From: an uncultured bacterium
Lineage (GTDB): Bacteria > Pseudomonadota > Alphaproteobacteria > UBA8366 > JADFVY01
Assembly: GCA_965603635.1 (NCBI GenBank)
Contig: CBFDDT010000003.1
Location: 6,978-70,977, forward strand
Length of the DNA stretch: 64,000 bases
Direction: 5' to 3'
Position numbers and translations under genes: made by a program
Notes under the pieces: model-generated
The model's input: only the letters and a program-made list of their open reading frames with translations
The model's database searches: none
Told to the model about the DNA's origin: nothing
Shown here: piece after piece, positions 13,722-47,466 of the stretch
How the letters are laid out: each line of letters begins with the position of its first letter
How positions within the stretch are numbered: the first letter of the stretch is position 1

Positions 13722-14096
13722 TCAGACGTGGATAATTTGATCTTTTAACGAATAGGCGATCGCCAATACGTCCTTGCGGGTATGCTCATCGATCTTGTGC
13801 TTGTCGAGCGTGCTCAGGATGTCATCGACCGCAGCCATGTATTCCTGCGCGCTGACATTCATACCGCGATGCGCCTCGGGCATTTCGCGGCCGCTATACT
13901 GCTCCGGCCCTCCGGCGCCCGCGCCAAAGAAATCGCACAGATGTTGTTTGATGGTGGCAAGACGCTCCGGCTCGTTGCGGTAAGGCAAGAAGCGGACCTT
14001 GATCAGCGGATTATTCATGTGCGCTTCGACGACGTCGTCCACCAACGTTTTGATACCTTTTTCGCCCCCGAGACGTTCGTACAGACTTTCACTCAT
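13722..14096 (-). CDS. Truncated hemoglobin (group I-like globin)
   Basis: MSESLYERLGGEKGIKTLVDDV... is a trHb-type N-terminus. The start is ATG 14096, preceded by AAGGAG. Confidence 0.8.
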   Translation of the reverse strand: MSESLYERLGGEKGIKTLVDDVVEAHMNNPLIKVRFLPYRNEPERLATIKQHLCDFFGAGAGGPEQYSGREMPEAHRGMNVSAQEYMAAVDDILSTLDKHKIDEHTRKDVLAIAYSLKDQIIHV

Positions 14097-14210
14097 ATTA
14101 TTCTCCTTACTGTTGCCAATTCCATGCTGGAAAGGTCGCGCCAATCAGATTGCGACCGGATTTTGATATACGAATCAAGAGTATATTGTTGACTGCGTTT
14201 TGGGATGTCT

Positions 14211-14227: not shown

Positions 14228-14328
14228 GTCCGCGATTAAATCGTGGGGCAGAAGCTCGAAAGAAAAACATCGTTTGAGCGGTGGGCGTTGGGTTCGCCTG
14301 CAATCTGGCATTTTTTGAAGGAGATGGC

Positions 14329-15045
14329 ATGAAGGGGTATGGTCAATACTGTCCGCTGGCACAGGCCAGCCAGATATTGTGCGAGCGCTGGACACTGCTG
14401 GTCGTGCGAGAATTGATCGCCGGCAGCACAAGATTCAATGAATTGCGACGAGGCGTGCCGCTTATGTCGCCGACGCTGCTATCGCGGCGCCTAAAACAGT
14501 TGGAGACAGCGGGTGTGGTTCGGCGCCAGCGGACCGGCAATGACATTTCCTATGAACTCACCCAGGCCGGTGAAGAACTGCGCCCGGCCATCGAGCTGCT
14601 CGGCGCCTGGGGACACCGCTGGGTGCGCACCCGGTTGGGGCCCGAGGATCTGGATGCCGGGTTGTTGATGTGGGACATGCGGCGCTGCATCGACCCCGCT
14701 CATTTCCCGGAGCATCGCGTGGTCGTGCAACTTCATTACATGGATGCCCCACAGGGGGCGCGGGATTGGTGGCTGGTTTCCGAGAGCCGCGATGTCGACC
14801 TGTGCCTCGCGGACCCGGGTTACGAAGTGGATCTGCTGATCCGCAGCCCGTTGGCCACGATGACGGCGGTCTGGACCTGCCAGTTGCCTTTCCGGGATGC
14901 CGAGCGCAGTGGCGAAATCGAAGTGGTGGGGGACGTTGGGCTGGCGCGGAAACTGCCGGACTGGCTGTGCGCCAGCCCTCTCTCGCGTCTCGGTGAGCTT
15001 TACGAACCGCCGGAAGTGGGTTGGGCCGAGATTAGTCGGGCGTAG
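14329..15045 (+). CDS. HxlR family winged-helix regulator with a C-terminal extension domain
   Basis: YGQYCPLAQASQILCERWTLLVVRELIAGSTRFNELRRGVPLMSPTLLSRRLKQLE. The start is ATG 14329, preceded by GAAGGAG. Confidence 0.85.
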   Translation: MKGYGQYCPLAQASQILCERWTLLVVRELIAGSTRFNELRRGVPLMSPTLLSRRLKQLETAGVVRRQRTGNDISYELTQAGEELRPAIELLGAWGHRWVRTRLGPEDLDAGLLMWDMRRCIDPAHFPEHRVVVQLHYMDAPQGARDWWLVSESRDVDLCLADPGYEVDLLIRSPLATMTAVWTCQLPFRDAERSGEIEVVGDVGLARKLPDWLCASPLSRLGELYEPPEVGWAEISRA

Positions 15046-15287: not shown

Positions 15288-15382
15288 GGTAATACCCGGG
15301 TTAACCTGCGTCCCGCGCACCCGAACGGAAAATCGGCTATAGCTTGGTGGGTTATCTGATTACAGCCACGGGAGGCGCAACA

Positions 15383-16384
15383 ATGACTGACGGCGGCATG
15401 TCGCCATACGGGTTCACGGCGGCGGCAGATGAGCCGATTGCCTACCTGCGACGTATTCGGGAGTATTATGAGGCGCTGGGTTATGGCGCGCCCTATGAGT
15501 GGGCGCATTACGATGACGCGCCCTTCCAGCCATTGGGGAAACCGCTGGCGGAATGCCGGGTGGCCATCGTCACCACCGCCGCCCCCTACCAGCCCGGCAA
15601 GGGCGACCAGGGGCCGGGCGCGCCCTACAATGCGGAACCCAAATTCTATAAGGTTTACTCGGGCGATACGGATGCGGAGCACGATCTGCGCATTTCGCAC
15701 ATCGCCTACGACCGCGCCCACACCACGGCGGAAGACCACGGCGCCTATTTTCCCCTGCCGGAACTACGGCGAGCGGCGGCGCGCGGGCGCATTGGGGCCG
15801 TTGCGCCGCGTTTCCACGGCATCCCCACCAACCGCAGCCATCGCGTGACCATCGGGACCGACTGCCCGGAGGTCGTTGCGCGGGCGAAGGAAGACAGCGT
15901 GGACGCGGTGCTGCTGCTGCCCAACTGCCCGGTCTGCCACCAGACGGTCAGCCTGGCGGCGCGGATGCTGGAGGAGAACGGCATCGCCACCGTCGTCATG
16001 GGCTGCGCCAGGGATATCGTGGAATATGTGGGCGTGCCGCGCCTGCTGTTTTCCGACTTCCCCCTGGGCAATGCGGCCGGGCGGCCAGGCGACCCGGAGT
16101 CCCAGGCGCTGACGCTGGAGTTGGCTCTGCGGCTGCTGGAAAGCGCACCCGGCCCGCGCACCACAATGCAGTCGCCGCTGAAATGGAGCGACGATGCGGA
16201 CTGGAAGCTGGACTATTCAAACGCCGCGCGGATGACGCCAGAGGAAATCGCCAAACGGCGTGCCGAGTTCGACCGGGTGAAGGCCACGGCAAAAACCCTG
16301 CGCGAGGATGCAGGGGTTACGCGGGACAGGCGCGCCGAGGCGCCGGCGGATTTCCGCCCGGCGCGTGGCGGCGAGACGGCGTAG
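15383..16384 (+). CDS. Glycine/sarcosine/betaine/D-proline reductase component B-like family protein (non-selenoprotein homolog)
   Basis: The family was recognised from blocks such as RVAIVTTAAPY..., LLLPNCPVCHQT..., GIATVVMGCARD. There is no in-frame TGA. The start is ATG 15383, after GGGAGG. Confidence 0.65.
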   Translation: MTDGGMSPYGFTAAADEPIAYLRRIREYYEALGYGAPYEWAHYDDAPFQPLGKPLAECRVAIVTTAAPYQPGKGDQGPGAPYNAEPKFYKVYSGDTDAEHDLRISHIAYDRAHTTAEDHGAYFPLPELRRAAARGRIGAVAPRFHGIPTNRSHRVTIGTDCPEVVARAKEDSVDAVLLLPNCPVCHQTVSLAARMLEENGIATVVMGCARDIVEYVGVPRLLFSDFPLGNAAGRPGDPESQALTLELALRLLESAPGPRTTMQSPLKWSDDADWKLDYSNAARMTPEEIAKRRAEFDRVKATAKTLREDAGVTRDRRAEAPADFRPARGGETA

Positions 16385-16411
16385 GCGGCAGGTCTGCCGA
16401 TAGCCTAAAGT

Positions 16412-16453
16412 TTGATCTCCATCAAAGCGTTACGACGCGATTCTTGTTAGAAT
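16412..16453 (+). promoter_or_regulatory. Class II FNR/FixK-type promoter: perfect TTGATCTCCATCAA box plus a TAGAAT -10 element
   Basis: The box at 16412-16425 matches TTGAT-N4-ATCAA at 10 of 10 positions. TAGAAT at 16448-16453 starts 22 nt after the box end, which centres the box near -41.5. The downstream ATG is at 16530. Confidence 0.7.
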
Positions 16454-16529
16454 TTTATCGTTGATGCGAGCTAACGGCGCCGACGCGTCTGCGATTGCCC
16501 GGCATGCGGAGAAGGAGGTCGGCACAGCA

Positions 16530-17537
16530 ATGCGAAACATGAAATGGACAGCGTTGCCGTTGGTGCTCGCCCTGCTCTGCTTTACCGGCACCGGCCCAGC
16601 CTGGGCGAAGACGGAACCGGACCCGGCGGTCGCCGTGCCGCGGGTACAGAATCCAAGGCGCATCGCCGAAGGGCCGCACGGACTGGTGCTGGTCACCGAC
16701 CGCCGCCTCGGCGCCGTCGTCGCGGTCGACAGGGACAGTCTGGAGCCGATCTGGAGCACCGCGCTGCCGCGGGAGGGCGCACCCTTCGGGCTTGCAGCCA
16801 TGAAGCAGCGGGTCTTCGTCGGCAATACCAGCACAAAGAACGTCGAGGTTTACAGGATGCGCGGGCCCGGCGAGCCTTACACGGCACTCCGTTTCGCCTA
16901 CAACCTCGGTAACGTCCCCGAGGGCGCGACCGGCCCCTTCGAAAATCCGATCGGCATTGCCGTGGACAAGAACGAGAATCTGGTATTCGTTCTCGACGGC
17001 GCGACGAAGCGCATCGACGTGTACAAATCGAGAGGTTCGATTCAGCATTCTTTCGAGCCGCGGGACAGCGAAGGCGTGTTGCTAAGCCCGGTATCGCTAG
17101 CAGTGGACGAACTGCGCCGGGAAATTCTGGTCGGCGATTACGGCAATCCGCGACCGGAGCCCGACTGCAGTTTCTGCACATACACCGCCACCGCACCGGC
17201 GCGCATCCTGATCTACGATTATGGCGGCGAGCTGCTGTTTGAGATCAGGGGCGACGGCACCACCCATTGGTCGACGCGGTTCGCCCGAGTGCAGGGGATG
17301 GCGGCGAGCGGCGACGGGCGGATCTTCGCGGCCGACCCCCTGGGCGGCCGGATTCTCGTCTTCGACCGGTACAGCGGTGCCTTGCTGCAGGAACTGGGCA
17401 CGCAAGGACCGGACGAAGGACAGCTTATGCTGCCGCTGGATGTCTGGCTCGATAGCGAGACCGGCGATCTGTTCGTCTCCAACAACCGGGGCGCCCGCCG
17501 CGTGGAAGTGCTGCGGAACGTCGGGGGGCAGCAATGA
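16530..17537 (+). CDS. Secreted NHL-repeat / six-bladed beta-propeller protein
   Basis: The signal peptide is MRNMKWTALPLVLALLCFTGTGPAWA. Repeated blade motifs are present (PIGIAVD, PVSLAVD, GRILVFD, LFVSNN). There is an AAGGAGG RBS. Confidence 0.8.
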   Translation: MRNMKWTALPLVLALLCFTGTGPAWAKTEPDPAVAVPRVQNPRRIAEGPHGLVLVTDRRLGAVVAVDRDSLEPIWSTALPREGAPFGLAAMKQRVFVGNTSTKNVEVYRMRGPGEPYTALRFAYNLGNVPEGATGPFENPIGIAVDKNENLVFVLDGATKRIDVYKSRGSIQHSFEPRDSEGVLLSPVSLAVDELRREILVGDYGNPRPEPDCSFCTYTATAPARILIYDYGGELLFEIRGDGTTHWSTRFARVQGMAASGDGRIFAADPLGGRILVFDRYSGALLQELGTQGPDEGQLMLPLDVWLDSETGDLFVSNNRGARRVEVLRNVGGQQ

Positions 17538-18343
17538 GAATCTTCGTCAGGTTTTTCGGTGTTGCGTTGCTGGTGTTCGGCTGGCTCGTCCTGGCGCCGG
17601 TTCCCGCGGCGCATGCCGCGATGGAGTGTATCGAATGTCACGCCGACCCGAACGGCGGGGGATTCCATGGCGGATTTCGCTCGCTGACGGGCCTGACCAG
17701 GGCCGAGGTCGATGTCGTCTGCCTGTCCTGCCATGACGGTAGCTATACCAACCCCGCCGGCATCACGGCGCCCGAGGCCGCAGTCCATGAGCAGGTCTAC
17801 AGCGGATCGGGCAAGGCCCCCGAATACGGGACGTTCAGCGCCGGCTGCCTCGATTGTCACAACACCCATGGCCAACTGGCCGGCGACGGCAGCCTGATCG
17901 AAAACCTGCAACTGCTGGGCGCGCTGGTCCGCGAAGCGAGTTCCACCGACGGCGTCGCGCGAATCCGCAAGCCGATCATCGACCCCGGCCCCGACGGCAC
18001 GCTCGGCACCAGCGACGATTTCCATGCCGGCTGGGAATGCGACAGCGGTATCAATGACGATCCCGCCTGCGTCACCGCCGACGACGGCTTCGGCGGCACC
18101 CATGTCCGCGCGCCGGCGTTCTACGGTAATATCTATGAAGGGGGCACCTGGTCCGGCAATGGCGGGGTAAATCCGTGGGCGAACGACACGCTTCCCTACA
18201 ACGGCTCCTGTAATTCCTGCCATACCCGCACCAACCACCACCGCCGGGACAACAGCGGCGGCGACCACACCCACAACATCTCCAAGGCGGGCTGCGTCGC
18301 CTGCCACTCGCACGTGTCCGGCTGGCTGAACAAGGGCGGCTGA
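17534..18343 (+). CDS. Secreted pentaheme c-type cytochrome
   Basis: It has a signal peptide and five CXXCH motifs (CIECH, CLSCH, CLDCH, CNSCH, CVACH). It is translationally coupled to the upstream gene by an ATGA overlap. Confidence 0.85.
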   Translation: MRIFVRFFGVALLVFGWLVLAPVPAAHAAMECIECHADPNGGGFHGGFRSLTGLTRAEVDVVCLSCHDGSYTNPAGITAPEAAVHEQVYSGSGKAPEYGTFSAGCLDCHNTHGQLAGDGSLIENLQLLGALVREASSTDGVARIRKPIIDPGPDGTLGTSDDFHAGWECDSGINDDPACVTADDGFGGTHVRAPAFYGNIYEGGTWSGNGGVNPWANDTLPYNGSCNSCHTRTNHHRRDNSGGDHTHNISKAGCVACHSHVSGWLNKGG

Positions 18344-18432
18344 GGGTTCTACCGGGCGCGGGGTAGAGGCTTGCCCTCTATTCCGCTGCCTCGTCTTCTC
18401 CCGCGTCGAGCCTGACCTAGCAGGCTGCTGGG

Positions 18433-19857
18433 TCACCCCACCACGAATTCCGGCAACTCCGCTGGCCGCCAGTCGCCCAGCGCGTCCTCGATATAACGGG
18501 CGGCGGATATCAGTTCCGCCTCGCCACCGGGGCGGCCGGCGATCTGAATGCCGGCGGGCAGGCCGTCCGGGGTAGTGCCGCAAGGGATACAGATCACCGG
18601 CAGCGAGACCAGGGTGAAGCCGTAGGTGATGGCCAACCAGTCTATGTAAGTCTCGAATTTGCGCCCGTTGCACTCGCCGACATAGCGTTCGTCCTTGGGA
18701 AAAGGCGGGACGATGGCGCCGGGGCAGACGATAACGTCGTGGGTTTCCAGGAACTCACGCACGGCGTGGAACAGCCGCACCCTCTCGCGCTCAGCCTCAA
18801 CGATGGCGCGGCCGTCCAGCGCCAGGCCTTTCTCGACGTTCCAGATCACCTCCGGTTTCAACAGGTCGCGGTGGGATTCCAGCAGCGGCCCGGTCGCCAC
18901 GGCAAAGGCCACCGCGCGCAATACCTGGAACGCCTCGTGCGTTCCGGTGAAATCCGGGCAGGCCTCAACCATCGGCAAACCAGCGCCCTCCAGCCGGCCA
19001 ACCGCGTCCCGGAACACAGCCTCTACCGCCGGGTCGACCGGCGCCAGCCCCAGACCCACGCTGAAAGCAACGCGGGCGGGCTTGCGCGGGTTGCGCGCGG
19101 CGGCCAGGAACATACCGCCGCTGTCGGCGCTGGCCACGGGGACGGTATGGTCGCGCCCCGTCATGGCGTCCAGGCCCAGCGCGGCATCGGTAACGTTGCG
19201 CGCCATCGGCCCCTCGACGGGCAGCAAGCCGTAGGGATTGGTATCGGGACCCGTGGGCACGCGGCCGGGGCTGGGCCGCAAGCCGACGACGCCGCAAAAA
19301 CTCGCCGGGGTGCGCAGCGATCCCGCCATGTCGGAGCCATGGGCAATCCAGGCGCAGCCCGTGGCCAGCGCCGCCGCCGCGCCGCCCGAGGAACCACCCG
19401 CCGAGCGCTCGCGGTTCCAGGGGTTGACGGTGGTTCCGAATACCTCGTTGAAAGTGTGCCCGCCGGCGCCAAATTCCGGGGTGTTCGACTTGGCGTAGAC
19501 AATGCCGCCACGATCCTCCAGCCGCGTAACGATGCTCTCGGACCGCTCCGGCACATGGTCGGCGAAGATCGGCGAGCCGGATGTCGTGCGCACGCCCGCG
19601 ACCGGCACCAGATCCTTGATCGGTATAGGCAACCCCGCCAGCATGCCGCGATCTTCCGGCTTGCGTTCCATCAACCGCCGCGCATGATCGCGCGCCCGGT
19701 CGAGGCACAACGTCGGCAAGGCGTTGACCACCGGGTCGACCTCGGCAATCCTCTGTTCCAGCGTGTCGATGAGGTCCAGCGCCGAAACCTCGCCCTGCTT
19801 CAGGAGGTCGACAATTTCCGTTGCACTCTTTTCAATCAGCGTTTTGTCCGCGCCCAT
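18433..19857 (-). CDS. Amidase (amidase-signature family)
   Basis: It carries the GGSSGGAAAALA signature and is 474 aa long. Confidence 0.9.
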   Translation of the reverse strand: MGADKTLIEKSATEIVDLLKQGEVSALDLIDTLEQRIAEVDPVVNALPTLCLDRARDHARRLMERKPEDRGMLAGLPIPIKDLVPVAGVRTTSGSPIFADHVPERSESIVTRLEDRGGIVYAKSNTPEFGAGGHTFNEVFGTTVNPWNRERSAGGSSGGAAAALATGCAWIAHGSDMAGSLRTPASFCGVVGLRPSPGRVPTGPDTNPYGLLPVEGPMARNVTDAALGLDAMTGRDHTVPVASADSGGMFLAAARNPRKPARVAFSVGLGLAPVDPAVEAVFRDAVGRLEGAGLPMVEACPDFTGTHEAFQVLRAVAFAVATGPLLESHRDLLKPEVIWNVEKGLALDGRAIVEAERERVRLFHAVREFLETHDVIVCPGAIVPPFPKDERYVGECNGRKFETYIDWLAITYGFTLVSLPVICIPCGTTPDGLPAGIQIAGRPGGEAELISAARYIEDALGDWRPAELPEFVVG

Positions 19858-22621: not shown

Positions 22622-24511
22622 TTACTCCTCCACCTCCACGACCTTGGCCGGACGGCAATCGACGGCCTGGACGGGCAGGCGGACGGTGAAGCGGCTACCC
22701 TCGCCGGGTTTGCTGTCGACCGAAATGGCGCCGCCCATCATCTCGGAGTAGTGGCGGCATATGGCGAGCCCCAGGCCGGTGCCGCCATATTTCGAATCGC
22801 GGCCTGTTTCGGTCCGCTCGAAGGCCACGAACACGCTTTCCAGGCTGTCGCGCGCGATGCCGATGCCGCTGTCGGCAACGTAAAAGCGAATCCATTCCTT
22901 GCCGCCGGTGTGGGCATCGTCATGGAAGCGCGACATACCAAAGTGGATTTCGCCCTCGTCGGTGAATTTCGCGGCATTTGCCAGCAGGTTGAACAGAATC
23001 TGCTTCAACTTGGTGGCGTCCGCGCGCATGCGCCCCGGTTTGGTCGGGATGTCCAGGATCAGCTGGTTGCCATTGGCCTCCACAAGTGGGCGGACCGTCG
23101 CGGCGATCTCGCCTATCAGCACCGTCAGGTCGATTTCCTCCAAATGGAACTCAGTGCGCCCGGCCTCGATCCGCGACAAATCCAGTACTTCATTGATCAA
23201 CTGCAGCAGATGCCGGCCCGCGATATTAATGCGCTCCAGATCGGGTGCAAGATCGGATTGCCCGCGTTCCTCGACATCTTCCTTCAAAATTTCGCTGTAG
23301 CCGATAACCGCGTTCAGCGGGGTTCGCAATTCGTGGCTCATATTGGCGAGAAACTGCGATTTCGCCGCATTGGCCTCTTCGGCCTGAAACTTCGCGGCGA
23401 GCAATTCCTGTTCCACCTCGTAACGTTCTGTAATGTCCAGATTTGTGCCTGTTACGCGAATCGCCCTGCCCTCGGCGTCGCTGGCGATGTCCGCCTGTTC
23501 GAAGATCACCTTTTCGCTGCCGTCGGGCAGGATAATCCGGTAATCGCAGCTGTAGGGTTTGCATTGTGCGACGGCATCCCTGATCACCGCGTCGACGCGC
23601 TCGCGGTCCTCGGCGTGAACGATATTCAAGGTCGTGTCGTAGTCATAGGCCGTGGCGTTCATGTCCCGTCCGAACAGGCGGTTGTTTTCGTCGGACGAAA
23701 TAATCCTGTCATTGACGATGTCCCACTCCCAGCTACCAAGGCGCGCGATGCGCTGGGCGTTGGCCAGCGCCTTTTCCCGGTCGCGCAACATTTCTTCCAC
23801 CCGCTCGCGATCTGCGATTTCATTGCGCAAATTCTCGTTCAGGCTTTCCGCGCGCTCTTTCGCCTCAAGCGCCTTCTCGGTCTCTTCGATCAGGTTCGCC
23901 ACGAGTCCACGATTTTCGCCGGTCAGGCGTACGGCTTCGAGAACGACCCTTTCCTGCCGCTTTCCGGTCATCAACAGGAATGCCAGCAACACCGTGCCCA
24001 TTACCGCCATGGACCAGCCGATCTCACCGCCTTGCCAAGCGAAATAGAGGACTGCCGGCCCCAGAACCGGGATGACGAACAACAGGTAAGTCATGAAAAC
24101 GCGGGCCAGCGACGGCAGCCCACCCGCGGCCATCCCGCCCAACACGAAGGCCGTGAACACCTTGTGAAGCGGCGGCGCCTCGGACATCACGACCAGGCAA
24201 CCGACGCCCCAGCCGATGCCCGTTAATGTAGTGAGTACAGCCAGGCGCAGCAGCCACGCCCGTGCTTCGACTTCATCATAGCTACCGGCACGGCGGTGCC
24301 AGGCATACAGGGCAATGCGCGACATCATTACGCTGGCGATAAAGGCAAACCATCCTAGCAATATCGGGGATGGCAGTTCGCCGCGCATGACGAAGGACAG
24401 GACCGCGGCGTTTAACAGATTTACCGCAACCGTGGCCGGCGCGTCGGAATAGATCAACCGGACTCTGCCGGCGAGATAGGGTTCCCTGTCGTGTATGTCG
24501 GCGGAAGCCAT
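22622..24511 (-). CDS. Membrane sensor histidine kinase (multi-TM N-terminus, coiled coil, PAS, HisKA, HATPase_c)
   Basis: The H-box is [21 protein letters not shown], and the N/G boxes are LLANAAKFT and [11 protein letters not shown]. Confidence 0.9.
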
Positions 24512-24540
24512 ATTCGATTACCCCGTCCCGGTCCGGTCGA

Positions 24541-26484
24541 TCAATTCGTTGCCCCGGCAATCGCCGGAGCGAGGGACGCGCTGGCTTTAGCCGGCAAGCG
24601 AACCGTAAAGACGCTGCCCCGGCCGAGCTCGCTCTCGGCCGATATCGCGCCGCCCATCATCTCACAGTAATGCCGGCTTATGGCCAGACCCAGGCCGGTG
24701 CCCCCATATTTTCGCGTAGTGGAGGGGTCCAGTTGGTCGAAGGCCCGGAAGGCGGCCTCGATCCGGTTCGCCGCCATGCCGATGCCGCTGTCGGTTACGG
24801 TGAATAGGATCCAGCCATCATGGCCCTCCGCCTCTGGCTCCTCCAGGCGATGCACCTTGACGGTTATCCGTCCCTCTTCGGTGAATTTCGCGGCGTTCGA
24901 TAACAGATTATACAGGATCTGACGGACCTTGGTCGCGTCGGCGGCCATTTCGCCCAAGTCCGGGTCGCAATCGACGGTCAACTCGTTGCCCTTGGCCGCG
25001 GCAAGTGGGCGAACCGTCGAGACCACATCGCCGACCAATTCAGAGACTCTGAACGATTCAATATACAGTTCCATCCGTCCGGCTTCGATTTTCGACAGGT
25101 CCAGCACCTCATTGACCAGCGCCAGCAGATGCCGCCCCGCCGTGTTGATTCGGTCCAGATCGACCGAGCTTTCCTCCTGGCCCGCCTCCACCGCATCTTC
25201 CTTCAGGATTTCGCTGTAGCCAATAATGGCGTTCAGCGGGGTCCGGAATTCGTGGCTCATATTAGCCAGGAACCGTGACTTGGCGCGGCTTCCCTCCTCG
25301 GCCTGAGATTTCGCCGCCTCCAGTTCCCGCAATACCCGGTGCTGTTCGGTAATGTCATGGGTTGTCCCGGTCATGCTCGCGGGACGGCCACTATCGTCGA
25401 ACATCGTCTCACCACGTTCATGCAGGACTCGCGCCGTGCCGTCAGCCAGAAAAGCGCGATGTACCACGCTATAGATCGAGCCATCTTCGAGTGAAGCGTT
25501 GACCGCTTTGGTAACGGCGTCCCGGTCATCCGGGTGCACCATTCCCATGAACTGATCGAACGTGATGGATTCAGTGGCCCGGTCGATAGCGAAGATACTA
25601 TAAGCCTCATCCGATCCACGAATTTCGTTCGTTACCAGGTTCCATGTCCAGCTTCCAAGCCCGGCTATACGCTGTGCATTCGCAAGGCTTGCCTCTCGCT
25701 CTCGCAACTCACCACCGACCTTTTCGCGTTCAGCCATTTCGTGCCGCAGCTCAGCGTTCAACTGCTCGGCCCGGGCTTTCTCAGCCGTCAGATGTTCGAT
25801 CAGCCCCTGGTTTTCCATTGATAACCCGAGCGATTGTTCCAGTGAGTCGCTTTGTTTTCGTCCGGCAAGCAGCAAAAAAGTCAGGAACAGAACCGACATG
25901 GCGGCCATGCCGTACCCGGATTCTCCTCCCACCCTTGCGAAATGGACGGCGACAGGGGTTACCGACGGAATCACGAAGGCCAGATATGCCGGATAATAAC
26001 GCGTCAGGGTAATTACCGCGCCCGCGGCCGACCCACCGAGCACACCGACGGTGATTATCTGATACGGTGGCCCCGCCTCCGGCAGCATGAAAATGCCCGC
26101 AAGACCCCAAGCCACGCCGGTCCACAGGGCTCCGAGCGAATAGTACCGCGCCCAGTTCCCCATCGCGCCATCCGTTGGCGCGGCCGCCCTGAACCTGCTT
26201 ACCAGCCAAACCCGCCAGAGGATGCCAGCCGCCATGAAGGCCGACCACCCAGCCAGGATACCGGCATCCACCATGTTGCGAAAAACTATTGCCAGGATCA
26301 CGGTATTTATGACGTTTACTGTCGTGGTCTGCCCAATGCCCGAGTACAGCAGCCGCACACGCGCCGCATATATCCGCTGCTCCAGTCCACCGGACAGGAC
26401 CGTGGTTGGCATGGGGGCGACGAAGGAACCGCCGGTATCCAATTCGTTCTTGATCTGGCTTGTCATAAATTCGGTGCGACTCAC
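24541..26484 (-). CDS. Membrane sensor histidine kinase, tandem paralog of the downstream kinase
   Basis: It has the same architecture. The H-box is [21 protein letters not shown], with [11 protein letters not shown]. Confidence 0.9.
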   Translation of the reverse strand: MSRTEFMTSQIKNELDTGGSFVAPMPTTVLSGGLEQRIYAARVRLLYSGIGQTTTVNVINTVILAIVFRNMVDAGILAGWSAFMAAGILWRVWLVSRFRAAAPTDGAMGNWARYYSLGALWTGVAWGLAGIFMLPEAGPPYQIITVGVLGGSAAGAVITLTRYYPAYLAFVIPSVTPVAVHFARVGGESGYGMAAMSVLFLTFLLLAGRKQSDSLEQSLGLSMENQGLIEHLTAEKARAEQLNAELRHEMAEREKVGGELREREASLANAQRIAGLGSWTWNLVTNEIRGSDEAYSIFAIDRATESITFDQFMGMVHPDDRDAVTKAVNASLEDGSIYSVVHRAFLADGTARVLHERGETMFDDSGRPASMTGTTHDITEQHRVLRELEAAKSQAEEGSRAKSRFLANMSHEFRTPLNAIIGYSEILKEDAVEAGQEESSVDLDRINTAGRHLLALVNEVLDLSKIEAGRMELYIESFRVSELVGDVVSTVRPLAAAKGNELTVDCDPDLGEMAADATKVRQILYNLLSNAAKFTEEGRITVKVHRLEEPEAEGHDGWILFTVTDSGIGMAANRIEAAFRAFDQLDPSTTRKYGGTGLGLAISRHYCEMMGGAISAESELGRGSVFTVRLPAKASASLAPAIAGATN

Positions 26485-33539: not shown

Positions 33540-34844
33540 TCAGTTGCCGCGCTCGGGATCGGTTATGTGTTTCAGATAGGCGATCAGTTCGGCGCGGTCC
33601 CGCGGTTCGTTCATGCGTTGCAGCGGCATCTTGGAACCCGGGGTGAACAGGTCGGGACCCTCGGCAAATAGCCTGTCTATATTTTCTTCTGTCCATATTA
33701 TGTCCGTGCCGACCAGCGCATCGGAATAGGGATACCCTTCGACGGTTCCGGCCGGGCGGCCGAATACACCGTATAAAGTCGGTCCCGCCTTGTCGGCGCC
33801 ATCAATTTCCGTAGTGTGGCAGGCCCGGCATTTACGAAACAGGCGGGCGCCCCGACTGCCGTCTTCCTCGTGCCCGGCGCCGGCGGTTTCCGTCAATTCG
33901 CCACCTAGCGGAATGCCGTATTCAACGTCCCAGATACGAACGATCCCGTCGGCGCCGGCCGACAGCAACAATCTGCCGTCTGGTGTAAAGGAAAGAGACC
34001 AGACCGGACCTTCATGACCTTCCATGGCATGGACGATTTTACCGCTGGCGAGGTGCCAGATCCTGACAGCCTTGTCGATACCGCCAGACGCAACCAGTTT
34101 TCCATTCGCGGAAATCGCGATCCCTATTATGGGGCCCGCATGGCCATACCAAATGGCCAGTTCCCGCCCGGTTTCCAGGTCCCACAAGCGGACGGTTTCG
34201 TCCACGCTGCCCGAGATCGCCTGGCGGCCGTCCGGCGTGAAGACGACGCTGTTTACGGCAAAGTCGTGGCCGGTTACCGTCAACAGCAATGCGCCGTCGG
34301 CGACGTTCCACAGATGCATGCTGGAATCATGCGCGCCCGAAAGCAACTTCTTGCCGTCCGGCGAGAACGCCACCGCATTGAAATTAGTATCGCGGCCTTC
34401 AAGTATACTCAGCGTTTCGCCCGACTCGATATCCCAGATCCGGATACTGCGATCCCAGGCCGCCGTGGCAGCGAGTTGGCCGTCCGGCGATACCGTCACG
34501 GCCGCTATCTTTCCCCTGTGCCCTGAGTATTTCCGGAGGACGGTTCCATCATCCAGTGACCAGAGAATCATCATTCCGTCGTCTGCGCCGGAAACAGCGC
34601 GGGCGCCGTCAGGCAGGAAGGCGACGCTGTTAACGCCGCCCTCATGGCCGTTGAACCGACCCGCCCTGCCGCTGTCCGGCAGGTTCCAGTGCATAACGGA
34701 ATAATCGAAGCTGGCGGTTAGCGCATGCCGGCCGTCCGGGGATATGGCGACGTCCTTGACGAAGCCGCCATGCCCCACGAGGTCGGCGCGCGCCACCGCC
34801 GACACGAACAGAACGGCCAGCGCGCTTGCTGTCCAGAACTTCAC
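33540..34844 (-). CDS. Secreted 7-blade WD40 beta-propeller fused to a C-terminal class I cytochrome c domain
   Basis: The signal peptide is VKFWTASALAVLFVSAVARA. Seven GH...W(D/N/S/H) repeats are present. The C-terminus reads FRKCRACH...GPTLYGVFGR...GSKMP...IAYLK. GTG start at 34844 after GGAGAG. Confidence 0.85.
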   Translation of the reverse strand: MKFWTASALAVLFVSAVARADLVGHGGFVKDVAISPDGRHALTASFDYSVMHWNLPDSGRAGRFNGHEGGVNSVAFLPDGARAVSGADDGMMILWSLDDGTVLRKYSGHRGKIAAVTVSPDGQLAATAAWDRSIRIWDIESGETLSILEGRDTNFNAVAFSPDGKKLLSGAHDSSMHLWNVADGALLLTVTGHDFAVNSVVFTPDGRQAISGSVDETVRLWDLETGRELAIWYGHAGPIIGIAISANGKLVASGGIDKAVRIWHLASGKIVHAMEGHEGPVWSLSFTPDGRLLLSAGADGIVRIWDVEYGIPLGGELTETAGAGHEEDGSRGARLFRKCRACHTTEIDGADKAGPTLYGVFGRPAGTVEGYPYSDALVGTDIIWTEENIDRLFAEGPDLFTPGSKMPLQRMNEPRDRAELIAYLKHITDPERGN

Positions 34845-34935
34845 GACCAGTACCCTCTCCTGTCCCGGTTCATGGTTCGGGAAACGGCGCGGCACGAAGG
34901 ACCACCTTTCAGGCAGCCCTTCGCGCCTTGCCCAA

Positions 34936-36102
34936 TCAGGCGGTCTGCGGTTTGGCGTCCCCGGCCACGGCCGTGGAACCGCCATCACCATCGTGATCCG
35001 GCGGCGGCGCCTCGCCTTTGACCTCGGCGACCCAAAGCCCATGATGTTCACGGGCCCAGTTCTCATCGACCATGCCGCTACCCATGGCGTCCCATGCACC
35101 TTCCATGCCCACTGATCCAATATAGATATGAGAGATGATGATGGCGATCATCACCGCGGCCATGACGGCATGCCAGAGAAGTGAAAGCTGCAGCTCCTCG
35201 ATCCCCGTAAGCGCGGTCGGGAGGTTCAGTCCAAAGACATTCAATAACGAGAAGGTCGGCCCAAACACGCTGAACGTGGAGGGGAACATCATCGACAATC
35301 CAGAAACGCTAAGCGTAACGCCCCCCAAAACAACGGACCAGAAAATGAATTTCTGACCGGCATTGAATTTTTTTGCGGGCGGGTGAACGTCCTTGGTAAA
35401 CAGCCCGCCGCCGACGGCAAGCCATTTCAGGTCGATACCCCGTGGGATATTATCCTTTACCCACAGCACGAAGATCAGCACGATCCCCGCCATAAAGGCG
35501 AAGGCGACGTAATGGTGAAGCAGTTTTCCATAGTAGGCGGTAAAGGCAAAAATTTGGTGCAACGCCCCGAATTCGCCAGGCGTCTCGCCCGCCTTGCCGA
35601 AAAGATAGCGGCCGTACATGACATTCAGTCCGGTTAACCCCAGCACGATGAAGCTGCCCGCGGTCAGCCAATGACCGATAAGTTCGATGCGGCTGAAACG
35701 TTCTATCAGCCTGCCGCTGAGCCCCGAGTCGATGCGTATGCGACCGCGCAGACCAAAGAAAAATCCCAGAATGACAAGCATGCCAACAATCATCCAGCCG
35801 CCGAAACTGGCAACGGGCCCATTGCGAGCATTACGCCAGTTCTCGCCCTCTGACTGGATCATCACCCCGGCCTTTTTGTCCGGGATCGAGACCGTGAATT
35901 GCTCTCCCTGGCGCACGGAGCGCCAAAACTCTGCGTCACTGTTCGCGCCAAGCGACTCGCCCGGCACCTCACCGGCTTGTTGCGCCATCGCCATGCCGGA
36001 GAAACCCGGCAGTTCGATCGTCGCCACGCCGAAGCCGGCCGCAAGCGTCAGCACGACCATAAATCGTGCAACATAACTGAAAGATTTGATTATTTTAGAC
36101 AT
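34936..36102 (-). CDS. Formate dehydrogenase gamma subunit (cytochrome b) with an N-terminal periplasmic extension
   Basis: The FdnI-type 4-TM core has conserved His residues (IGHWLTAG, LLHHYVAF, NAGQKFIFW, SHIYIG). The start is ATG 36102 after GGAGAG. Confidence 0.85.
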   Translation of the reverse strand: MSKIIKSFSYVARFMVVLTLAAGFGVATIELPGFSGMAMAQQAGEVPGESLGANSDAEFWRSVRQGEQFTVSIPDKKAGVMIQSEGENWRNARNGPVASFGGWMIVGMLVILGFFFGLRGRIRIDSGLSGRLIERFSRIELIGHWLTAGSFIVLGLTGLNVMYGRYLFGKAGETPGEFGALHQIFAFTAYYGKLLHHYVAFAFMAGIVLIFVLWVKDNIPRGIDLKWLAVGGGLFTKDVHPPAKKFNAGQKFIFWSVVLGGVTLSVSGLSMMFPSTFSVFGPTFSLLNVFGLNLPTALTGIEELQLSLLWHAVMAAVMIAIIISHIYIGSVGMEGAWDAMGSGMVDENWAREHHGLWVAEVKGEAPPPDHDGDGGSTAVAGDAKPQTA

Positions 36103-36136
36103 TCGCCCTCTCCGAAGAAATGGGTTTGCCGGATCG

Positions 36137-36337
36137 TTACCGTTGGCCATTGGCCCGATAACGAAGTTCGGTTAATTGCTCGTCCGTCAGGTTCTGGTCC
36201 GGCTTACCCATATAGGTCCCCTTTTCGAACTCCAGCGTTCTGTTCTGTTCTTCCTTGCGGCAACCACTGATCGCCAGTCCGGCCACCAACAGGCAGCCCA
36301 GCAACAGTGGCAAACGCGCTCTGCTCATTCCGTTCAT
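36137..36337 (-). CDS. 66-aa lipoprotein, hypothetical
   Basis: The lipobox is LLGCLLVAGLAISGC, after MNGMSRARLP. It sits between the FDH beta and gamma genes. Confidence 0.5.
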   Translation of the reverse strand: MNGMSRARLPLLLGCLLVAGLAISGCRKEEQNRTLEFEKGTYMGKPDQNLTDEQLTELRYRANGQR

Positions 36338-36407
36338 GGCCTCATATACCCTTTCATTCTCATGCTCTTCCGGCGCGGCGGTAACATACAGCTTTTTGTC
36401 GTCAATC

Positions 36408-36459
36408 TTCCCTGAAAATAAGAACAGGGGAGGCGCGGCCCGAAAGCCCCGCCCCCCCC
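36408..36459 (-). terminator. GC-rich hairpin plus T-rich tail between fdh beta and the lipoprotein/gamma genes (possible attenuator)
   Basis: The arms ggggaggcg (36427-36435) and cgccccccc (36450-36458) pair at 8 of 9 positions. On the minus strand the stem is followed by tgttcttattttc. A C8/G8 homopolymer lies at 36452-36459. Confidence 0.4.
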
Positions 36460-36491
36460 GGGTTATCTTGCAACAAGATCCTGTATCCGGC

Positions 36492-37088
36492 TCAGCTTCC
36501 CGATTTAAGCTGATAAGCCGTTCCCCAGCCCCAGGCGCCCGAGCCGAAGCCACGCGCTACAACGCGTTCGCGATAGATGTCGGATACGACATTGCCATCG
36601 CCGGCGAGTAGCGCCTTGGTCGAGCACATTTCCGCGCAAAGCGGGAGCTTGCCCTCGGCCAGACGGTTACGGCCATATTTCTGGAACTCAGCGTCGGACA
36701 TATCTTCTTCCGGGCCACCATTGCAGAAGGTGCATTTATCCATCTTGCCGCGGCTGCCAAAATTACCGGCGCTTGGATATTGGGGCGCGCCAAACGGGCA
36801 GGCGTAGAAGCAATAACCGCAACCGATGCACAGATCCTTGGAATGCAGAACCACGCCTTCCTCGGTTGAGTAGATGCAGTCGACCGGACACACCGCAATA
36901 CACGGTGCGTCCGAACAATGCATGCAAGCCACCGAAATCGAGCGTTCACCCGGTTTGCCGTCATTGATAGTAACGACCCGCCGGCGGTTTACACCCCACG
37001 GAACTTCGTTTTCGTTCTTACATGCAGTAACACAGGCGTTGCACTCGACACAGCGCTCGGCGTCACAAAGGAATTTCATGCGTGCCAT
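36492..37088 (-). CDS. Formate dehydrogenase iron-sulfur (beta) subunit, 4x[4Fe-4S] ferredoxin type, no membrane anchor
   Basis: The cysteine clusters are CVECNACVTAC, CMHCSDAPC, CIGCGYCFYAC and CTFC; 198 aa. Confidence 0.9.
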   Translation of the reverse strand: MARMKFLCDAERCVECNACVTACKNENEVPWGVNRRRVVTINDGKPGERSISVACMHCSDAPCIAVCPVDCIYSTEEGVVLHSKDLCIGCGYCFYACPFGAPQYPSAGNFGSRGKMDKCTFCNGGPEEDMSDAEFQKYGRNRLAEGKLPLCAEMCSTKALLAGDGNVVSDIYRERVVARGFGSGAWGWGTAYQLKSGS

Positions 37089-37101
37089 GATTTATGCCTC
37101 C

Positions 37102-45971: not shown

Positions 45972-46189
45972 TAATGCGTTCCTCTCCCGCCATTTCCGGC
46001 TGTTGAAATCTTTACCACCACGGAAATAGTCCGCCGCGCCGCTGGTACCATAGCGCGGCCCCTGGCGGAAGCCCATGCGGGGCAGAAAAGGGGCCGGCGG
46101 GGCGTGATTACCGGCAACCGGTCGCCAATCGAGCGGCCTTGAAACGCCATTGATCCCGCCTGCGATGTTTTTTTTCCAACTATGTCAGG

Positions 46190-46565: not shown

Positions 46566-46820
46566 CTAAGTATTATGCGTTCGGCGACGTCCGCCGCGGC
46601 GTCCCGGGGACACAGTGGGCGCCCCGTCAACGGGAGCGATAGCCTCGACATCGGCCAGATCGGTCCGACCAGTGACACAAACCGGGCAGACGCAGCCCAT
46701 GGCGCCGGTGCGCAGGATCATTTCCTCGTAATCGAATTTACGCTCGACTTTCAGGCACCAGCATTCCTCGCCGCCATCGCAGTTGAAACCCCGGCCGCAA
46801 TTTGGGCATTTGCCACGCAT
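46566..46820 (-). CDS. Cysteine-rich CWC family protein
   Basis: CPNCGRGFNCDGGEECWCLKV...CVCPVC. Confidence 0.75.
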   Translation of the reverse strand: MRGKCPNCGRGFNCDGGEECWCLKVERKFDYEEMILRTGAMGCVCPVCVTGRTDLADVEAIAPVDGAPTVSPGRRGGRRRTHNT

Positions 46821-46838
46821 GGAATGACTCGCGAAAAA

Positions 46839-47366
46839 TCAGACGTCGGCTTCGATCTTGAAGCGTTCCTTCACCACGTCGGTGAAAAGGTGGTTGACGA
46901 GAATGCCCCGCACCGCCGCATCTTCAGGCACCACTTCGGAATCGAGGCTGCCGTCGGCGAACATCCCGAGCGCCTGTTCGCGGGCCTTCAGGACGACGGG
47001 GTCGAGCGCGGCCATGGTGACGCCGGAGATGAAACGCACCAGCTTGTCGGCCATTTTCATGGCATCCAGGTAAACCAGGCTTCCCGAATTCTGCAATTCA
47101 CCAACCCGGTCCTTCATCGCGTCGGCGCCCTTGCCGGACATCTCGCCCAGCGCCTCAAAAGTGGCGTCGGCCGCTGCCAATTGTTCCAGTTCGTCGCCAT
47201 GCCGGGCCTCGGTGAGCATTACCGTGCTGCACATCAGGAAACCCAAAACGTAATCGTCGTCCCAGAACCCATCAGGCAGGGGCAGCGCCTTCAGCCGGTC
47301 ATCCACGAATATAGAGATAACCCGCTCGGCGGTATCCTTCGGGCCAGTCGTGAGGTTTTCAATCAT
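46839..47366 (-). CDS. Hypothetical protein (175 aa)
   Basis: The ORF has good coding character and is the first gene of a minus-strand small-gene unit. I recognise no family. Confidence 0.6.
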   Translation of the reverse strand: MIENLTTGPKDTAERVISIFVDDRLKALPLPDGFWDDDYVLGFLMCSTVMLTEARHGDELEQLAAADATFEALGEMSGKGADAMKDRVGELQNSGSLVYLDAMKMADKLVRFISGVTMAALDPVVLKAREQALGMFADGSLDSEVVPEDAAVRGILVNHLFTDVVKERFKIEADV

Positions 47367-47466
47367 TCAGTACTCCCCCGCGGCCGGACCGCCGGTTGCA
47401 ATGTTCAATCCGACAAACCTAAACCATTCCCACGCGCCACGTAAAGGGCGGGGCGGGCGAGGTCCG

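Follow-up and report, generated by a model that had tools for sequence, protein, structure and literature searches.

The window analyzed here, a stretch of 64,000 nucleotides from an uncultured alphaproteobacterium, contains a pair of overlapping genes for an NHL-repeat β-propeller and a small pentahaem c-type cytochrome. This raises the question of what such a pair does and under which conditions the cell would make it. The earlier note on this DNA had described the locus as an oxygen-limited redox module behind an FNR/FixK-type promoter. Based on promoter conservation, protein family and structure comparisons, and the gene neighborhoods of orthologous pairs, our main reading, to which we give a probability of roughly 55%, is that the locus is an activator-dependent bicistronic operon for a periplasmic, NHL-docked pentahaem electron relay used under oxygen limitation. 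The coordinates of its features are collected in Table 1.

Table 1. Features of the NHL-cytochrome locus (positions are those of the window)
Feature	Position	Strand	Basis
CRP/FNR-family (FNR/FixK-type) binding box, TTGATCTCCATCAA	16412..16425	.	sequence match and conservation
-10-like hexamer, TAGAAT	16448..16453	+	read from sequence; 22 nt downstream of box
Shine-Dalgarno AGGAGG, 11 nt before NHL ATG	16513..16518	+	invariant in promoter alignment
NHL-repeat six-bladed β-propeller gene, 335 aa	16530..17537	+	Pfam NHL, AF2, Foldseek
Pentahaem c-type cytochrome gene, 269 aa	17534..18343	+	five CXXCH, Cytochrome_C7
CXXCH motifs	nt 17627-17641, 17720-17734, 17846-17860, 18209-18223, 18293-18307	+	sequence
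GC-rich hairpin, possible terminator without T-run	18353..18393	+	RNA fold; between cytochrome stop and convergent amidase gene

Class II FNR/FixK-dependent promoters carry the FNR consensus TTGAT-N4-ATCAA centered at -41.5. The box upstream of the NHL gene is the sole perfect match to this consensus within the 64-kb window, where shuffled sequences lead one to expect 0.03. If TAGAAT spans positions -12 to -7, with +1 near 16460, then the center of the box falls at -41.5, a position derived from the letters only. The consensus promoter scan detected no sigma-70 -35/-10 pair at the promoter of the NHL-cytochrome operon, which agrees with an activator-dependent promoter. The features shared with class II FNR/FixK promoters are a perfect box, the 22-nt gap, a -10-like hexamer, the lack of a -35 element, and conservation. 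Orthologous promoters, all from related alphaproteobacterial metagenome-assembled genomes (MAGs), have box half-sites that are unchanged or differ by one change (L002/L015, L007/L008/L014, L009-L011, and L016), and five distinct promoters keep the half-sites and, largely, the -10, while the flanks diverge around the box (mean column identity of the aligned promoter region, 58%). In the promoter alignment, the -10 position of close relatives reads TAGAAT, TAGAAG, or TAGATT. The L016 promoter has the spacer CCGA and diverged flanks, yet both half-sites are kept and TATCAT lies at the same 22-nt distance from the box. The perfect consensus and the hexamer that the earlier note had claimed are thus both present where it placed them, the former being unique in 64 kb, and its class II reading is supported by phylogenetic footprinting across the orthologous promoters. 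In distant clades no box was found upstream of the NHL gene, which suggests that control through the box is lineage-specific. A riboswitch or attenuator in the 5' leader was considered and dropped, as the RNA structure of the leader is not unusual (z 0.0).

The NHL gene starts at the ATG at 16530 rather than at the mechanically assigned TTG at 16461. This ATG and its AGGAGG are conserved in relatives, and a 335-aa entry in the protein database (P0063) is 100% identical, over its full length, to the translation from it. Both proteins of the operon have a basic N-terminal n-region, a hydrophobic core, and an AxA site, from which we read a predicted Sec signal peptide of residues 1 to 26 for the NHL protein (AWA-K) and of residues 1 to 28 for the cytochrome (AHA-A), as had been claimed for both. 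The description of the first protein as a six-bladed NHL-type propeller holds: the score for Pfam NHL (PF01436) is 36.5 bits (cutoff, 20), a profile run against PDB sequences finds the TRIM71 NHL domain (E 9e-30), and the AF2 model (pLDDT 87, pTM 0.83, 23 strands) has as its best Foldseek matches the NHL domains of Thin, TRIM71, and TRIM2 (E 8e-17; TM 0.76-0.80 on target), with the best 25 PDB matches all being six-bladed NHL or Pizza6 structures. Six polar residues of the propeller are invariant (D193, E198, D203, R253, Q255, and D304) and could equally be compatible with a catalytic or a metal site, and the alphaproteobacterial clade has an extra CxxC loop. For the cofactor-binding families PQQ_2 and SGL, the propeller scores under the cutoffs. 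A hydrazine synthase-like enzyme was rejected, because the relevant structure (5c2v_B) ranks only 43rd in the Foldseek list, a generic propeller similarity.

The second protein is indeed a 269-aa cytochrome with five CXXCH motifs (residues 32-36, 63-67, 105-109, 226-230, and 254-258). In 30 homologues all five motifs are unchanged, and H45, H85, H112, H235, H247, H260, and M30 are invariant too. Since these invariant His and Met residues suffice for six-coordination of every haem, the cytochrome is most likely, judging from its sequence, an electron relay and not a catalytic haem enzyme. It matches Pfam Cytochrome_C7 (28 bits; cutoff, 24.8), and its several CXXCH motifs, candidate distal ligands, and predicted export fit a multihaem c-type cytochrome of the c3/c7/MtrC-like superfamily. 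Two further cysteines, C169 and C179, are conserved, which suggests a disulfide that would fit an oxidizing compartment. Of the low-complexity features described earlier, the Gly/Asp-rich loops are variable and carry indels; the His-rich segment, in contrast, is the most conserved part of the family and holds invariant candidate distal haem ligands, so that it is a conserved haem-ligand motif rather than low complexity. The C-terminal dihaem unit that includes this segment occurs in up to 15 copies in giant multihaem proteins with MtrC/MtrF-like domains, and the protein ends in a conserved GW(L/V)NKGG tail. The AF2 model made from the 30 homologues (pLDDT 46) is too poor for fold comparison. 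NapC/NirT proteins carry a membrane anchor. One homologue (P0003) bears the NapC/NirT name at NCBI; we rejected this identity for the window cytochrome, which has no PF03264 match, five haem motifs, and a cleavable AxA signal peptide instead of an anchor.

The stop codon of the NHL gene overlaps the start codon of the cytochrome gene in an ATGA at 17534-17537, which bears out the proposed translational coupling. The two-gene operon is bounded by a convergent amidase gene, and a PrdB/GrdB-like gene lies upstream. The RNA fold of 18338-18435, which includes the hairpin in Table 1, has an energy of -51.8 kcal/mol (z -2.9 versus shuffles); the consensus terminator scan made no call on the hairpin. 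We looked for co-conservation of the gene pair elsewhere and found it to be strict in every locus recovered: an orthologue of the NHL gene is immediately upstream of the cytochrome gene in 26 of 26 loci (L001-L026) in which the cytochrome query has a tblastn match, and which come from Alpha- and Gammaproteobacteria, Acidobacteriota, and other groups. Strict adjacency together with translational coupling suggests a 1:1 complex. The family is small, with 14 loci among 185,579 species genomes, all of them MAGs and none characterized; in these sequence collections the pair is rare and seen only in uncultured bacteria.

The neighbors of orthologous pairs bear on the function. Undecahaem, tetrahaem, and NHL genes lie next to the pair in MAGs that include Rhodospirillales, Kiloniellales, and Acidobacteriota. 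In four loci (L017, L020, L023, and L026) the adjoining genes encode an undecahaem protein (about 600-630 aa), a tetrahaem protein, and an NHL protein of a second type; L017 also has trihaem c7 proteins, and both L017 and L020 have a gene for a putative β-barrel. In L018 the undecahaem match is partial, and L022/L024 have tetrahaem and second-type NHL genes. Neighboring proteins of 656 aa in L003 and 612 aa in L012 have signal-peptide-like N termini and a C-terminal Phe; they are likely outer-membrane β-barrels, an assignment resting on these two features only, and they have no mutual similarity detectable by tblastn. A Rhodospirillales MAG has a perfect intergenic box upstream of the tetrahaem gene in the Uet-like cluster next to the pair, and the same locus encodes a CRP/FNR-family regulator. 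The undecahaem, tetrahaem, and NHL neighbors of orthologous pairs in other phyla support the link to extracytoplasmic electron transfer that had been proposed for this locus. The attribution to a deltaproteobacterial metal-reducing type was too narrow, as the closest analogue in gene content is the Uet cluster of Gamma- and Betaproteobacteria. Since Uet belongs to electron-uptake and iron-oxidizing bacteria, electrons may flow in either direction.

Across its 64 kb, the window itself lacks any porin or undecahaem gene, and the cytochrome is its one multihaem ORF, which makes a periplasmic location more likely than an extracellular role here. The earlier note had allowed for either; the periplasmic half of that claim is the more likely one, and the extracellular half lacks a porin or a second multihaem cytochrome in the window. 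The window pair is tied to extracellular electron transfer by association only. A porin-cytochrome conduit of the MtrCAB/PCC type was rejected, given the one multihaem ORF in 64 kb and flanks that consist of the PrdB/GrdB-like and amidase genes.

Taken together, these observations suggest that the pair is a real periplasmic electron-transfer module, probably induced by oxygen limitation. In the model that we favor, the operon would be transcribed from an activator-dependent promoter with a CRP/FNR-family box centered near -41.5. When oxygen runs short, RNA polymerase would be brought there by a dimeric regulator of the FNR/FixK type, whose gene would lie elsewhere in the genome. A tblastn search with an E. 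coli FNR query and with the CRP/FNR regulator of L003 found no CRP/FNR gene in the 64 kb. Sec would export both products, and the cytochrome would gain five covalent haems in the periplasm. The two proteins would then form a 1:1 complex in which the propeller serves for docking or partner recognition and the cytochrome is the wire. Under micro-oxic or anoxic conditions, the module would link the respiratory chain of the inner membrane with a periplasmic or outer partner by shuttling electrons between the two. The alphaproteobacterial lineage would keep the pair as a stand-alone unit, while other lineages would attach it to Uet-like clusters, some with a putative porin. What we say of the identity of the regulator and its signal, the complex, the periplasmic location, the relay role, the direction of electron flow, and the partner or substrate is what we infer from the data above.

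Propeller enzymes include peptidyl-alpha-hydroxyglycine lyase (PAL) and the quinohaemoprotein dehydrogenases, and the pair might accordingly be a self-contained periplasmic oxidoreductase in which the NHL propeller is the catalytic subunit that binds the substrate and the cytochrome is dedicated to accepting its electrons or supplying it with them. We regard this as possible but doubtful. The strict 1:1 adjacency and coupling, the invariant acidic and basic residues of the propeller, and the CxxC loop added to it in the alphaproteobacterial clade would all suit an enzyme, as would the fact that this lineage has the pair without a porin or a large cytochrome; among the Foldseek matches, moreover, are the catalytic propeller of PAL (3fvz) and that of a hydrazine synthase subunit (5c2v_B). 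However, the best matches in both structure and sequence are non-catalytic NHL interaction domains, no cofactor-binding family was matched, and at least six other contexts put the pair beside cluster-type NHL, undecahaem, or tetrahaem genes, a setting in which NHL proteins are regarded as scaffolds. Somewhat less probable still is a reading in which the pair would be a new self-sufficient redox enzyme or shuttle of the periplasm in uncultured marine-sediment Alphaproteobacteria, induced by oxygen limitation, with a propeller that binds either a specific substrate, inorganic or organic, or the GW(L/V)NKGG tail of the cytochrome; it would then represent a minimal, detachable core with which Uet-like extracellular electron-transfer clusters exchange electrons.

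Two further alternatives concern the promoter rather than the proteins. NO-responsive regulators of the Dnr/NnrR type bind boxes similar to the FNR/FixK box, the motif TTGAT-N4-ATCAA being common to FNR, FixK, and Dnr- and NnrR-type regulators, so the box alone cannot distinguish among these paralogues. It may serve such a regulator, one that senses something other than oxygen directly, and place the operon in a denitrification or nitrosative-stress regulon instead of one for oxygen limitation. The cluster at the N terminus of FNR involves three Cys residues, and the N-terminal region of the L003 regulator has just two; this protein is only a generic CRP/FNR-family member in NCBIfam (FixK model, 33 bits; cutoff, 300), and the window has a gene for a truncated globin 2.3 kb upstream. 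Nevertheless, the window has no nir, nor, or nos genes and the sequence offers no discrimination among the paralogues, and we consider this explanation unlikely. It is very improbable that the box is a chance palindrome and that the operon is constitutive or transcribed by read-through from the PrdB/GrdB-like gene, although that gene ends 27 nt before the box with no terminator between them and 3 of 100 window shuffles yield one perfect box. Against chance stand the half-sites and the -10 spacing, which are conserved in orthologous promoters, one of them with diverged flanks, and the box is intergenic, at a plausible 118 nt from the NHL start codon. Moreover, the box is kept with a different upstream gene in both L001 and L002; in L001 it is directly preceded by a Usp gene, which indicates that the box goes with the gene pair and not with the upstream gene.

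As it stands, the result is a well-supported annotation of an uncharacterized family, not a new mechanism. The value of the NHL-cytochrome pair is that it offers the simplest test case, with one propeller and one small cytochrome that are strictly paired and have a clean predicted regulatory input. Should the two proteins form a complex and their operon respond to low oxygen, one could test directly what NHL partners do in multihaem electron transfer, and components of Uet-like electron exchange would extend to uncultured sediment Alphaproteobacteria.

Comparison with known systems places each half of the pair. The six-bladed fold is common to the window protein and to eukaryotic and bacterial NHL domains (TRIM71/Lin41, Thin, TRIM2, and Brat; PF01436), from which the window protein differs in being secreted, single-domain, and paired with a cytochrome. 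NrfB, the pentahaem electron-transfer subunit of cytochrome c nitrite reductase, is a small, soluble, periplasmic pentahaem relay, as the window cytochrome would be, and its structure (PDB 2ozy) is the only solved one with detectable profile similarity to the window cytochrome (E 0.0026, over the N-terminal three-haem part); neither the C-terminal dihaem unit nor the central Cys-containing region is related to NrfB. Identity with NrfB was rejected (TIGR03146, 15.3 bits; cutoff, 166.6), and no nrfA or other nrf gene was found in the window, where the cytochrome is the one multihaem ORF.

For the pair as a whole, NHL proteins have been recorded in extracytoplasmic electron-transfer clusters (10.1101/2022.05.06.490989; PMC5815863), and in the cited literature their role in extracellular electron-transfer clusters is only hypothesized, as scaffolds or in adhesion. 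In Desulfovibrio ferrophilus IS5, the NHL-repeat proteins DFE_0451 and DFE_0463 are encoded in outer-membrane cytochrome clusters, where their genes are co-located and co-expressed with those of multihaem cytochromes and the proteins are proposed to stabilize cytochrome complexes (PMC5815863; PMC9769857). The window differs from this system in phylum and in cytochromes, and the likeness is one of gene association only. In the Uet (undecahaem electron transfer) cluster, described from Ca. Tenderia electrophaga and some Gallionella, the secreted NHL propellers UetH/I occur together with multihaem c-type cytochromes (10.1101/2022.05.06.490989; PMC10734462). The likeness of the L017, L020, L023, and L026 clusters to Uet is one of gene content only. 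The undecahaem protein of L017 has a homologue family of more than 7,500 proteins, including those of Ca. Thiodiazotropha and tubeworm symbionts; there are no Tenderia or Gallionella names among its matches, and the Tenderiales preprint makes no mention of Ca. Thiodiazotropha or tubeworm symbionts (10.1101/2022.05.06.490989). Compared with Uet, the window has the pair alone, lacking undecahaem, tetrahaem, c7, porin, PPIase, and cupredoxin genes, and the list of UetA-J contains no pentahaem protein. With only ~24% identity to NHL proteins of the cluster type, that of the window falls into a separate paralogue group. The pair of the window is a stand-alone variant of the known association between NHL propellers and multihaem cytochromes.

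The sequence TTGATCTCCATCAA upstream of the NHL gene is the sole perfect match to TTGAT-N4-ATCAA within the 64-kb window, against an expectation of 0.03 per window; 3 of 100 dinucleotide-preserving shuffles gave one. With 2 or fewer mismatches allowed, a window scan gives 23 box-like sites versus 15 expected, and among these box-like sites the perfect site alone stands out. If the hexamer TAGAAT, 22 nt beyond the box, is the -10 element, transcription would start near 16460 and the box would be centered at -41.5. A consensus scan of positions 16000-18700 found no sigma-70 -35/-10 pair, which is expected if an activator site stands in for the -35 region. FNR promoters are textbook, and FNR, FixK, and Dnr/NnrR-type paralogues are not distinguishable from the box sequence. 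No CRP/FNR-type regulator gene was found within the window. The box, the hexamer and its spacing, the ATGA overlap of the two genes, and the five CXXCH motifs of the cytochrome are all as the earlier note described them.

Both half-sites of the box are kept in the alphaproteobacterial clade, meaning the relatives with a cytochrome 77-90% identical to that of the window, whose loci are syntenic (SulP, Usp, ..., NHL, cytochrome, amidase, FAD oxidase, PAS kinases). In the intergenic alignment, TTGATCTCCATCAA is found in the window and in loci L007/L008/L014 and L009-L011 from other genomes, and the promoters of L001/L002/L015 carry TTGATCTCCGTCAA. The -10 position is conserved across the aligned promoters, and the region 5' of the box diverges. 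The most informative promoter locus is L016, which is largely unalignable, yet has TTGATCCGAATCAA, in which the half-sites are identical and the spacer is different, with TATCAT exactly 22 nt 3' of it. Locus L001 (3982-4991) lacks the three genes that lie between Usp and the box in the window (PrdB/GrdB-like, HxlR, and globin) and has Usp immediately 5' of the box and the pair, indicating that the box belongs to the pair. These alignments show that the CRP/FNR-type box is conserved and that its placement with respect to a -10-like hexamer has class II geometry. In distant clades there is no box upstream of the NHL gene. In a Rhodospirillales MAG (L003/L017), a perfect intergenic TTGATATAAATCAA precedes the cluster's next cytochrome gene by ~150 nt and has AATTAT 22 nt downstream; this locus also holds a generic CRP/FNR-family regulator gene. 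The predicted transcription start also coincides with a separate TTGAT half-site; the promoters of close relatives keep it without variation (alignment A1), and L016 does not.

The NHL start that is conserved is ATG 16530, not the TTG 16461 at which the mechanical ORF begins. P0063, a 335-aa database protein, is 100% identical over its full length to the translation from this ATG. The unit is closed by a convergent amidase gene.

Features of the window
Feature	Position	Strand	Remarks
Truncated globin gene	13722-14144	minus	between Usp and box
HxlR regulator gene	14281-15045		between Usp and box
PrdB/GrdB-like gene	15344-16384		between Usp and box
Perfect box TTGATCTCCATCAA	16412-16425		
TAGAAT	16448-16453		candidate -10 hexamer, 22 nt 3' of box
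TTGAT half-site	16462-16466		
AGGAGG	16513-16518		5' of ATG 16530; both invariant in relatives
NHL gene	16530-17537		335 aa
CSFC loop	~17160-17175		NHL residues ~212-215
Cytochrome gene	17534-18343		269 aa; start overlaps NHL gene end (ATGA)
GW(L/V)NKGG	18320-18340		cytochrome C terminus
GC-rich hairpin	18353-18393		between cytochrome and amidase genes; z -2.9
Amidase gene	18433-19857	minus	convergent; Pfam Amidase E 4e-92
Two tandem PAS-HisKA-type sensor kinase genes	22622-26484	minus	629 and 647 aa; downstream of FAD oxidase and sulfotransferase genes
Formate-dehydrogenase-like molybdoenzyme cluster	33543-39969	minus	
526-aa protein of this cluster	33543-35120	minus	C-terminal c550-like monohaem domain
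Cytochrome-b gamma subunit of this cluster	34939-36150	minus	
Alpha subunit of this cluster	37105-39969	minus	TIGR01591 E 6e-138, below its cutoff
726-aa protein	43899-46076	minus	several 4Fe-4S domains
One-mismatch FNR-like box TTGATTTCCATTAA	45961-45974		inside 5' end of 726-aa protein gene
One-mismatch FNR-like box TTGATGTATGTCAA	46546-46559		16 nt 5' of unassigned 289-aa ORF
289-aa ORF	46575-47444		

Elsewhere in the window, the region of TTGATTTCCATTAA and TTGATGTATGTCAA is a possible second target of the pair's regulator. The sensor kinases take their assignment from syntenic genes of L007, L009, and L010 that Pfam annotates; in L007, three PAS-HisKA-type kinases stand in a row.

The pair is rare. 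A word-indexed search across 5.8 billion proteins yielded 62 homologues of the cytochrome and 94 of the NHL protein; all come from metagenomes or MAGs, and none bears a functional name. When 1.84 billion cluster representatives were scanned in full with a HMMER profile, just 14 clusters had E < 1e-30. Among 185,579 species represented by one genome each, there are 14 loci, every one in a MAG, labeled as Pseudomonadota, Alphaproteobacteria, Rhodospirillales, Kiloniellales, Gammaproteobacteria, Acidobacteriota/Terriglobia, a Nitrospiraceae bin, a Flavobacteriales bin, and Zixiibacteriota. The NHL orthologue is immediately 5' of the cytochrome gene, on the same strand, in 26/26 loci with a tblastn cytochrome match (L001-L026, several of which duplicate one genomic place), with NHL identities of 37-84% and a gap of usually 0-10 nt. 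Neither tblastn query matched L027, a borderline Zixiibacteriota locus at 24% identity. A lack of co-conservation elsewhere, which would have told against the earlier note's reading, is clearly not seen, and the two genes are a strictly co-conserved, translationally coupled pair.

The NHL protein begins with a signal-peptide-like segment ending in AWA|K. Its Pfam NHL match is 36.5 bits versus a cutoff of 20; a 38-homologue profile matches the NHL domains of TRIM71, Thin, TRIM2, and Brat in the PDB at E 9e-30 to 1e-18; the AlphaFold2 model built from the 38-homologue alignment has pLDDT 87, pTM 0.83, and 23 strands; and NHL domains rank first in Foldseek against the PDB (E 8e-17, target TM 0.76-0.80). 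Based on these four lines of evidence, we conclude that it is a genuine six-bladed NHL propeller, one that its N terminus marks as exported. D193, E198, D203, R253, Q255, and D304 are invariant in the family alignment, and the C-terminal strand NNRGARRVE is nearly so. A loop insertion containing a CxxC motif (CSFC), where AlphaFold2 confidence is low (~55), is restricted to the alphaproteobacterial clade, which also bears the FNR box. In the orthologues P0092, P0094, P0096, and P0097, a lipobox-like ...G(A/S)xC N terminus replaces the AxA signal peptide (alignment A3), and in that lineage the propeller may be a lipoprotein.

The cytochrome begins with a signal peptide (AHA|A at its end) and carries five CXXCH motifs, each invariant across an alignment of 30 homologues with identities down to 48%. 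H45, H85, H112, H235, H247, H260, and M30 are invariant as well, which is enough for a sixth ligand on every haem, so that all five haems of this predicted exported cytochrome could be six-coordinate. Near-invariance of C169 and C179 points to a disulfide. The Gly/Asp-rich regions that the earlier note considered to be of low complexity are variable loops with indels, but the His-rich HTRTNHHRRDNSGGDHTHN that it listed beside them is conserved more strongly than any other part of the family. The near-invariant GW(L/V)NKGG at the extreme C terminus could serve as a tail for docking or sorting. The sole Pfam match, Cytochrome_C7, is marginal (28 bits versus 24.8), and no NCBIfam model scores above its cutoff; NrfB identity is ruled out by a score of 15 bits versus 167. 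Among PDB sequences, NrfB alone shows profile similarity (E 0.0026, N-terminal three-haem part only), and the AlphaFold2 model is unusable (pLDDT 46). The HMMER profile scan of cluster representatives divides the protein into an N-terminal three-haem unit, also found at the N termini of giant cytochromes, and a C-terminal dihaem unit (profile positions ~195-267), of which there are up to 15 copies in proteins of 1,000-3,300 aa that bear MtrC/MtrF-like, c7, and c3 domains.

We propose that an FNR/FixK-type regulator would switch on the operon at low oxygen and that the two proteins would form a 1:1 complex in the periplasm, with the cytochrome as relay and the propeller as docking or recognition subunit. 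Such a module would sit between the respiratory chain and a partner, periplasmic or outer, and electrons could flow either way, by uptake, as proposed for the undecahaem electron transfer (Uet) cluster, or by export. In the main rival explanation, the propeller would be catalytic and the two proteins together would make up a small periplasmic oxidoreductase.

Uet, described for Ca. Tenderia electrophaga and present in some Gallionella, comprises tetrahaem UetA, porin UetC, c7 trihaems UetD/E/G, NHL proteins UetH/I, and undecahaem UetJ (bioRxiv 10.1101/2022.05.06.490989; PMC10734462). In other phyla, the pair is often physically linked to clusters that resemble Uet at the level of gene content. 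In L017 (Rhodospirillales), the gene order runs from an NHL gene through the pair (NHL orthologue and pentahaem) to a tetrahaem gene, two c7 trihaem genes, the gene of a 656-aa signal-peptide protein with a C-terminal Phe, another NHL gene, and that of a 631-aa undecahaem protein. L020 (Terriglobia) and L026 (Acidobacteriota) have 16-haem, NHL, tetrahaem, NHL, and undecahaem genes, with a 612-aa putative barrel in L020. These genes in L026 (433-10645) are followed on one strand by the NHL orthologue and the pentahaem gene, so that the pair, in last place, resembles the end of a Uet-like operon. L023 has undecahaem and NHL genes beside the pair, L022 and L024 (Kiloniellales) have a second NHL type and a tetrahaem, and L018 has a partial undecahaem. 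The context differs in L005 (tetrahaem and cytochrome b/Rieske genes) and L013 (Big_5/PKD surface proteins). Undecahaem proteins form a very large family (>7,500 members). The window has no multihaem ORF besides the cytochrome and no homologue of the Uet-like cluster genes, and its NHL protein shares only ~24% identity with those of the cluster type, which indicates a distinct paralogue group.

In Desulfovibrio ferrophilus IS5, NHL proteins are co-expressed with outer-membrane cytochromes and have been proposed to stabilize their complexes (PMC5815863, PMC9769857). The association of NHL proteins with cytochromes is already documented, though its function is so far a matter of hypothesis. The novelty lies in the orthologous pair family itself, with no family-level curated model match, no solved close relative, and no cultured host, and in the stand-alone, FNR-box-bearing form of the pair in the alphaproteobacterial lineage.
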